DNA of 64,000 bases from Escherichia coli. Its GTDB lineage: Bacteria; Pseudomonadota; Gammaproteobacteria; Enterobacterales; Enterobacteriaceae. Made by a program: the position numbers and the translations under genes. The stretch lies in NCBI RefSeq assembly GCF_003334335.1, contig NZ_QOWQ01000003.1; one strand, 5' to 3'. A model generated the notes under the pieces. It had not been told where the DNA came from. It did no database searches and saw only the letters and a program-made list of their open reading frames with translations. Positions 10,965 to 11,092 of this stretch are shown here, one piece after another (the first letter of the stretch is position 1; the number at the start of each line of letters is the position of its first letter).

Positions 10965-11092
10965 ACTCTATGGATTTCGTGTTGCAGGAAGGCGGCAAGC
11001 GAGTGAACTCCAGGAGCTTACAATAGTAAGTGACTGGGGTGAACGAACGTAGCCGCAGCACATGCAACTTGAAATACGACGAGTAAATCGTT
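10965..11092. repeat. ERIC (enterobacterial repetitive intergenic consensus) element
   Basis: ydiJ-ydiK spacer contains ...GCAAGCGAGTGAACTCCAGGAGCTTACAATAGTAAGTGACTGGGGTGAACGAACG..., matching the ERIC central inverted repeat (the sequences used as ERIC1R/ERIC2 primers) with a few mismatches. Confidence 0.7.

Follow-up and report, generated by a model that had tools for sequence, protein, structure and literature searches.

The spacer between the divergent genes ydiJ and ydiK, in the 64-kb stretch of Escherichia coli DNA analyzed here (referred to as the window), contains a genuine full-length ERIC element. This copy very probably sits in the 5′ leader of ydiJ, 16 nt from its start, where it is transcribed as a hairpin and where it lengthens the leader together with an adjoining segment of 58 bp, named LEFT; an effect on the ydiJ message may follow from this arrangement. 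ERIC is generally viewed as a non-autonomous miniature transposon and is a 127-bp imperfect palindrome of enterobacteria. Elements of this type have reportedly been known since 1990–91, from Sharples and Lloyd in 1990 and Hulton and colleagues in 1991, and Wilson and Sharp are said to have catalogued the K-12 copies in 2006. The copy described here is therefore a known kind of element in the best-studied bacterial genome, and its local details are modestly useful and unsurprising. What they add is an ERIC copy in a mapped 5′ leader rather than in a 3′ or intercistronic position, a composite indel, a two-allele polymorphism, and recurrent ERIC insertions at one leader site.

Identity and boundaries of the ERIC element

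A near-consensus ERIC element with its characteristic central inverted repeat had originally been predicted at 10965–11092 of the window, in the ydiJ-ydiK spacer. The flanking genes are indeed ydiJ (7817–10873, - strand) and ydiK (11262–12374, + strand), separated by a spacer of 388 bp (10874–11261). In a global alignment, the 127-nt consensus for E. coli published by Wilson and Sharp (2006), as printed in Table 1a of Delihas (2007) (PMC2759123), delimited a complete ERIC (IRU, RU-1) element at 10962–11087, with the published consensus orientation on the - strand of the window. The element was thus found at the predicted place, but its true span is shifted by 3–5 bases. Its length is 126 bp, compared with approximately 127 bp expected for the family.

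The alignment extended over the full length of the consensus with 104 of 123 positions identical (84.6%), and identity to the Salmonella reference copy SeRU-1 was 85.7%. An nhmmer profile built from nine other ERIC copies matched the element with 101 bits over model positions 1–125 of 127. These results confirm the predicted ERIC identity, with good rather than poor alignment from end to end.

The central inverted repeat named in the original prediction is also present. Within the window the ERIC core pattern matched a single time, with no match in 100 shuffles, and this is the only ERIC copy in the 64 kb. The central palindrome (11003–11045), whose bases form the apical stem of the hairpin, is intact and well kept. 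The ERIC2 primer site lies at 11024–11045 and matches at 20 of 22 positions (2 mismatches). The ERIC1R primer had no ungapped match in the element at up to three mismatches because of a 1-nt deletion in the core, on the side opposite ERIC2, and it aligns with one gap; both primer sequences were checked against the literature. The wording "near-consensus" is somewhat generous for the whole element, given approximately 85% identity and the 1-nt core deletion.

The ends of the element form a perfect 7-bp inverted repeat, with TTTACTC at 10962–10968 and its complement GAGTAAA at 11081–11087, where the last base overlaps the conserved block ATCGTTTGCG. Longer inverted-repeat arms extend over 10962–10986 and 11063–11087. 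Contiguous terminal inverted repeats of 7 bp are described for the ERIC family (PMC2229807, Table 1).

The window matches E. coli K-12. The ydiJ-spacer copy is 100% identical to that of MG1655, and the annotation NC_000913.3 marks no repeat feature in the ydiJ-ydiK spacer. Relatives of the element occupy a median of 12 places per E. coli genome (range 2–18), including 14 in MG1655. The closest relative found was 88% identical and is located on the E. coli plasmid pHNAH212872-2 (NZ_CP104632.1). This 100-kb plasmid carries seemingly chromosomal E. coli genes, namely lafU, dinB, yafP, prfH, and pepD, with its ERIC copy at 2507–2633.

Two RNA family models of Rfam, V_AS5 (RF02818, Vibrio antisense RNA AS5) and Ysr49 (RF02766, Yersinia sRNA 49), were observed to align across the whole ERIC (10961–11126, + strand). 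The scores of 36.9 and 27.0 bits, respectively, are far under the gathering thresholds of 96 and 95, and the element is therefore not a member of either family. The alignments suggest that V_AS5 and Ysr49 were themselves built on ERIC-like repeats.

Position of the element in the ydiJ leader

Since ydiJ and ydiK diverge, an element in their spacer can sit only in a leader. The start codon of ydiJ, whose product is D-2-hydroxyglutarate dehydrogenase, is at 10871–10873 (-), and that of ydiK is at 11262–11264 (+). Two ydiJ starts are listed in Table S1 of Kim et al. (2012), which was obtained from exponentially growing MG1655 with a library enriched for triphosphate 5′ ends (PMC3415461): 1766938(-), with 49 reads and a 229-nt 5′ UTR, and 1766789(-), with 25 reads and an 80-nt 5′ UTR. 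The 51-nt sequences given for these starts mapped to 11102 and 10953 of the window, respectively (both - strand).

With the main start (P1) at 11102, the ERIC occupies +16 to +141 of the 229-nt leader in the mapped data. Because it lies between this start and the ATG at 10873, the element is transcribed, in the published consensus orientation. The leader of K-12 is 229 nt long, compared with 54 nt expected without the insert. The second 5′ end, at 10953, falls in the linker AAACAAACAUCA, with the ERIC hairpin ending 9 nt upstream and the hairpin of LEFT starting 2 nt downstream. The general remark in the original prediction that ERIC copies can affect mRNA stability becomes relevant at this locus because the published start data place the element inside the ydiJ 5′ leader.

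A consensus promoter scan of the spacer found no promoters. At 11110–11118 (-), however, the motif TGgTACAAC, which is below the threshold of that scan, stands at the position of a putative extended -10 relative to the start listed by Kim et al. (2012). Spacers of other genera contain it as TGTGATACAA, and it may act as the extended -10 of P1. Alleles that lack the element (empty alleles) have just 38 nt between the ATG of ydiJ and the conserved block ATCGTTTGCG, and the ydiJ promoter must therefore be to the right of the insertion site. The first 16 nt of the leader, GGCAACACGCAAACGA[U] (11087–11102, -), are conserved, and insertions in many genera start directly after them. The conserved block AATCGTTTGCGT at 11087–11098, with which the ydiJ leader opens, may resemble one half of a PurR operator (ACGCAAACGTTTGCGT). 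Searches of the Cappable-seq, Rend-seq, ROSE, Conway 2014, and Romero 2014 supplements gave nothing on ydiJ; a tiling paper on RNase E and RNase III contained nothing on ydiJ, and a paper on ydiJ enzymology contained no promoter data.

A long palindrome in a divergent spacer could also act as double-stranded DNA between the two promoters, for example by binding a protein, forming a cruciform, or serving as an insulator. We consider such a role very improbable. Minor ydiK 5′ ends in the same table are at 11200, 11032 (inside the ERIC loop), and 10745, with 2, 3, and 4 reads, respectively. To the right of the ERIC, the leftward ydiJ start at 11102 and the rightward ydiK start at 11200 point away from each other; the element follows the ydiJ start and therefore does not separate the two promoters. 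Furthermore, the reviews consulted report no DNA motif of ERIC beyond the terminal repeats (PMC2229807).

The same start data bear on a 52-codon ORF that runs through the ERIC on the - strand (11121–10963). It is intact and of equal length in five Escherichia lineages, and reading frames in ERIC have been pointed out earlier (PMC2759123). Its ATG at 11121, however, is upstream of the ydiJ start at 11102 and hence not on the main transcript as mapped. Most interspecies differences change an amino acid, with five changes between K-12 and E. albertii, and the frame is still open because few substitutions have occurred. A small protein was accordingly rejected as an explanation of the element, being hardly conceivable with the start codon outside the main transcript and no sign of protein-level constraint.

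Two further features were observed near the element. The ydiK leader contains a small hairpin, GCGTC-GACGATTT-GACGC, at 11222–11239 (+), 23 nt before the ydiK start codon. The hairpin is retained in Citrobacter as GCGTCA...TGACGC, and the GCCAGC...GCTGG of Enterobacter at the same place suggests compensatory change. Downstream of ydiK, the sRNA gene rprA, which is annotated in K-12, was found at 12560–12667 (+) with a full-length match to Rfam RF00034 (118.5 bits).

Predicted hairpins of ERIC and LEFT

RNA folding of the ERIC gave -56.1 kcal/mol for the + strand (z -6.0) and -39.2 kcal/mol for the - strand (z -4.2); the hairpin is therefore weaker in the transcribed (-) orientation (-39 vs. 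-56 kcal/mol). An alignment of 13 ERIC copies, made up of five Escherichia orthologues, the two reference sequences from the literature, and six that come from other loci or genera, supported one long hairpin with 37 conserved pairs, nine of which showed compensatory double changes. The second base of each terminus (columns 2/127) is one such compensatory pair, with T...A here and A...T in the consensus; since the right end carries the matching change, the terminal pair of this TTTA...TAAA copy is kept. The folding model thus predicts that the ERIC RNA in the ydiJ leader can form a hairpin of approximately 125 nt, kept across the family through compensatory changes. The K-12 copy has a change that breaks one stem pair (alignment column 19). 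The predicted fold around the ydiJ ribosome-binding site was the same for the long and the short leader, with no differing sequestration.

LEFT (10904–10961, -) is a single-copy segment that adjoins the ERIC and is absent from empty alleles. Its - strand RNA is predicted to fold into a hairpin at 10951–10921 (-15.7 kcal/mol, z -3.1), which starts 2 nt after the second ydiJ 5′ end listed by Kim et al. (2012).

The origin of LEFT as an internally deleted, reverse ERIC was considered because of a TTTCAGGCTGC motif and because reverse ERICs or their remnants occur at the same site in Enterobacter and Raoultella. This candidate was not supported. Local alignment of LEFT to the ERIC consensus reached only p ~0.05, and alignments to the inserts at loci L042, L029 (Raoultella), and L049 gave p values of 0.03–0.9. 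The nhmmer profile did not match LEFT, and anchored global alignments yielded z scores of only 2.0–2.7 for L042 and less for the others.

Distribution of filled and empty alleles in Escherichia

The locus had been predicted to vary between strains, and a comparison of presence and absence bore this out. The 388-bp filled spacer was found in 4256 of 5426 complete E. coli genomes (78%), and the 213-bp empty spacer, whose junction was searched directly, was found in 1168 (22%); two genomes had neither allele. LEFT occurs once per genome and was found in the same 4256 genomes as the ERIC and in no others, so that the two segments are always present or absent together. Strains with the empty allele include 536, Nissle 1917, ATCC 25922, and ST131 strains, which we take to belong to phylogroup B2.

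In the filled allele, 10904–11087 stands in place of approximately 10 bp (ATGAGAGATT) of the empty allele, a net difference of 175 bp. The indel consists of the ERIC and the adjoining 58-bp LEFT, so the alleles differ by more than the ERIC. The ends of the element here read TTTA...TAAA (5′-TA-3′ for the family), and comparison of the filled and empty sites is confounded by LEFT and the replaced stretch of 10 bp. No clean TA target duplication is readable because the unrelated 58 bp also form part of the indel.

E. albertii, E. whittamii, and two further Escherichia lineages also have the filled allele, and its junctions and LEFT are the same there. The empty allele occurs in Escherichia sp. 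MOD1-EC7003, and a 213-bp spacer is present in several Citrobacter species. The empty allele retains GAGAGATTAATCG, which is close to GAGAGTTAATCG of Citrobacter amalonaticus and is missing from the filled allele. Simple deletion of the filled allele was therefore ruled out as the source of the empty one, which, sharing this stretch with C. amalonaticus, looks ancestral. That E. coli contains both an old filled allele and an empty one that looks ancestral could reflect either a long-lived polymorphism or recombinational exchange of alleles. Such a clean two-allele polymorphism (78% vs. 22%) could serve as a natural experiment on the effect of an ERIC on a message.

Insertions at the same site in other Enterobacteriaceae

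The block ATCGTTTGCG is present in the spacers of approximately 70 of 80 species. Its distance from the ydiJ ATG is 29–44 nt in approximately 44 of the 80, and many others have a longer interval. In four groups, a complete ERIC lies within 0–4 nt of the block: Escherichia (+ orientation), Enterobacter sp. JUb54 (+), an Enterobacter genomospecies (-), and 'Chryseobacterium sp. 18061' (+), with a second ERIC copy further on at the last locus. The copies abutting the block in the other groups are only 71–77% identical to the K-12 copy, and the closest relatives of the ERIC-carrying groups have empty sites. From this low identity and the empty relatives, the four cases look like independent ERIC insertions at the same early-leader position. 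Independent insertions at the ydiJ leader in four lineages would argue for past mobility of ERIC.

Several observations were made on the inserts of other genera. Unrelated inserts of about 50, 60, 87, 130, and 170 bp are located just left of ATCGTTTGCG in Salmonella arizonae/diarizonae (two loci), Citrobacter spp. (three), Kluyvera (five), Raoultella (one), and one further locus (L065). The interval from the conserved leader start to the ydiJ ribosome-binding site is hypervariable across Enterobacteriaceae. In Citrobacter amalonaticus S646, an ERIC at spacer positions 63–266, on the other side of the conserved block, is split by an insert of approximately 85 bp, and profile positions 2–80 and 88–127 were matched separately. 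The sequence titled 'Chryseobacterium sp. 18061' (CACSKA010000003.1) carries an enterobacterial ydiJ-ydiK locus with its two ERIC copies, and this assembly is probably mislabelled or contaminated.

Divergence of the spacer within the genus

Between Escherichia species, LEFT and the ERIC differ at 2.2–6.5% of sites, compared with 10–36% at synonymous third positions in the distal parts of ydiJ and ydiK. Purifying selection specific to the ydiJ ERIC was considered as an explanation of this 5- to 10-fold lower divergence and was not supported, because the synonymous sites in the first 50 codons of ydiJ and ydiK diverge equally little (0–7.6%; Fisher tests against LEFT plus ERIC, p 0.1–0.8). Divergence is likewise low in comparisons that involve empty alleles. 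The signal is therefore regional and not specific to the ERIC, and no copy-specific signature of selection was found on an element that evolves no slower than the synonymous sites of the adjacent 50 codons.

The low divergence extends over a tract of approximately 700 bp (about 10720–11410) centred on the spacer, in which Escherichia species show 5–10 times fewer differences than in the rest of ydiJ and ydiK. When compared with Citrobacter and Salmonella, the same proximal codons of the two genes are only mildly conserved, so the tract may reflect recombination within Escherichia rather than long-term constraint. Both selection and inter-species recombination are possible origins of the tract.

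These comparisons are relevant to the view that the ERIC is an inert relic in the ydiJ leader, without measurable effect on the expression of ydiJ or ydiK. We regard this as a serious possibility, while on balance leaning against it. The match between the interspecies divergence of the ERIC and that of the neighbouring synonymous sites is as expected of a relic, although neutrality is obscured by the unusually high conservation of the whole region within the genus. The 1168 E. coli genomes that manage without the element, the unchanged structure predicted for the ribosome-binding region, and the disrupted stem pair of K-12 are also in its favor. On the other hand, a 125-nt hairpin and 175 nt of additional leader usually shift decay or translation somewhat, and an abundant second 5′ end is listed just past the ERIC, at 10953.

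Possible effects on the ydiJ message

The reading we prefer is that the element, as a transcribed hairpin in the leader, would influence the ydiJ message. Together with the adjoining A/U-rich linker (AAACAAACAUCA), the hairpin may alter processing or decay of the message. The end at 10953 could then be the product of an RNase E-type endonuclease, with the LEFT hairpin as a protective stem-loop that would cap the shortened message. A 5′-terminal stem-loop can stabilize an mRNA. Any effect on ydiJ is expected to be modest and dispensable, given that a fifth of E. coli strains do without the element. The literature searched yielded no ydiJ mRNA or protein measurements that compare carriers of the element with strains lacking it.

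Alternatively, the 10953 end could arise from a weak promoter formed where the ERIC terminus meets LEFT, in which case the element would have donated promoter DNA and a second ydiJ promoter (P2). The 25 reads at this position come from a triphosphate-enriched library, and, read directly from the sequence, a TAAACA hexamer is located at -12 to -7 with CTGCAA 16 nt upstream. By eye, however, only about 6 of 12 consensus positions match, and the promoter scan found none; exonuclease enrichment is also imperfect near stable hairpins. The K-12 ERIC copy upstream of yajO likewise has an internal 5′ end. Among the rows of Kim et al. (2012) examined, none showed a comparable 5′ end past another ERIC copy. 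Overall, the library chemistry argues for a promoter and the poor promoter sequence argues for processing, and we consider P2 unlikely.

The 5′ end upstream of yajO is at K-12 position 437453 (-), with 19 reads in the data of Kim et al. (2012). Since it lies inside another ERIC copy, 5′ ends associated with ERIC are not unique to ydiJ in these data.

A bolder version of the preferred reading, in which the leader ERIC affects the message, would make ERIC and LEFT together a lineage-specific module for post-transcriptional control of ydiJ and, in addition, would make leader position +16 a preferred ERIC target in Enterobacteriaceae. In such a module, the ERIC hairpin would direct cleavage or initiation at 10953, and the resulting message would be capped by the LEFT hairpin. 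We think it doubtful that the proposal holds in this extended form. If it did, strains without the module (B2-type) would express ydiJ differently, and a preference for +16 would provide a handle on the insertion specificity of ERIC.

Comparison with known elements

The Correia elements of Neisseria resemble the ydiJ ERIC as small palindromic inserts near a gene start that are transcribed and may have promoter or processing effects. They belong to another sequence family, and, unlike ERIC, they have documented outward promoters and RNase III processing, neither of which was found for ERIC in the literature searched.

The ERICs of Yersinia provide a closer parallel. These copies are transcribed together with a flanking gene and influence mRNA decay according to their orientation, as shown by De Gregorio et al. 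(2005) as cited in PMC2229807 and PMC3184786. The ydiJ ERIC shares with these copies, as they are described there, co-transcription, hairpin formation, and an adjoining A/U-rich single strand that could be an RNase E site. It differs from them in being part of a 5′ leader, whereas the Yersinia elements are located between or after genes and destabilize the upstream message.

With respect to the ERIC consensus itself, the ydiJ copy departs in its ends, which are TTTA...TAAA instead of TATA...TATA through a paired change, and in the 1-nt deletion of the core. In its length, full-length similarity, terminal inverted repeats, central palindrome, and long hairpin, as well as in its extragenic and transcribed location, its multiple copies, and its presence or absence between strains, it is a typical ERIC/IRU/RU-1 element.
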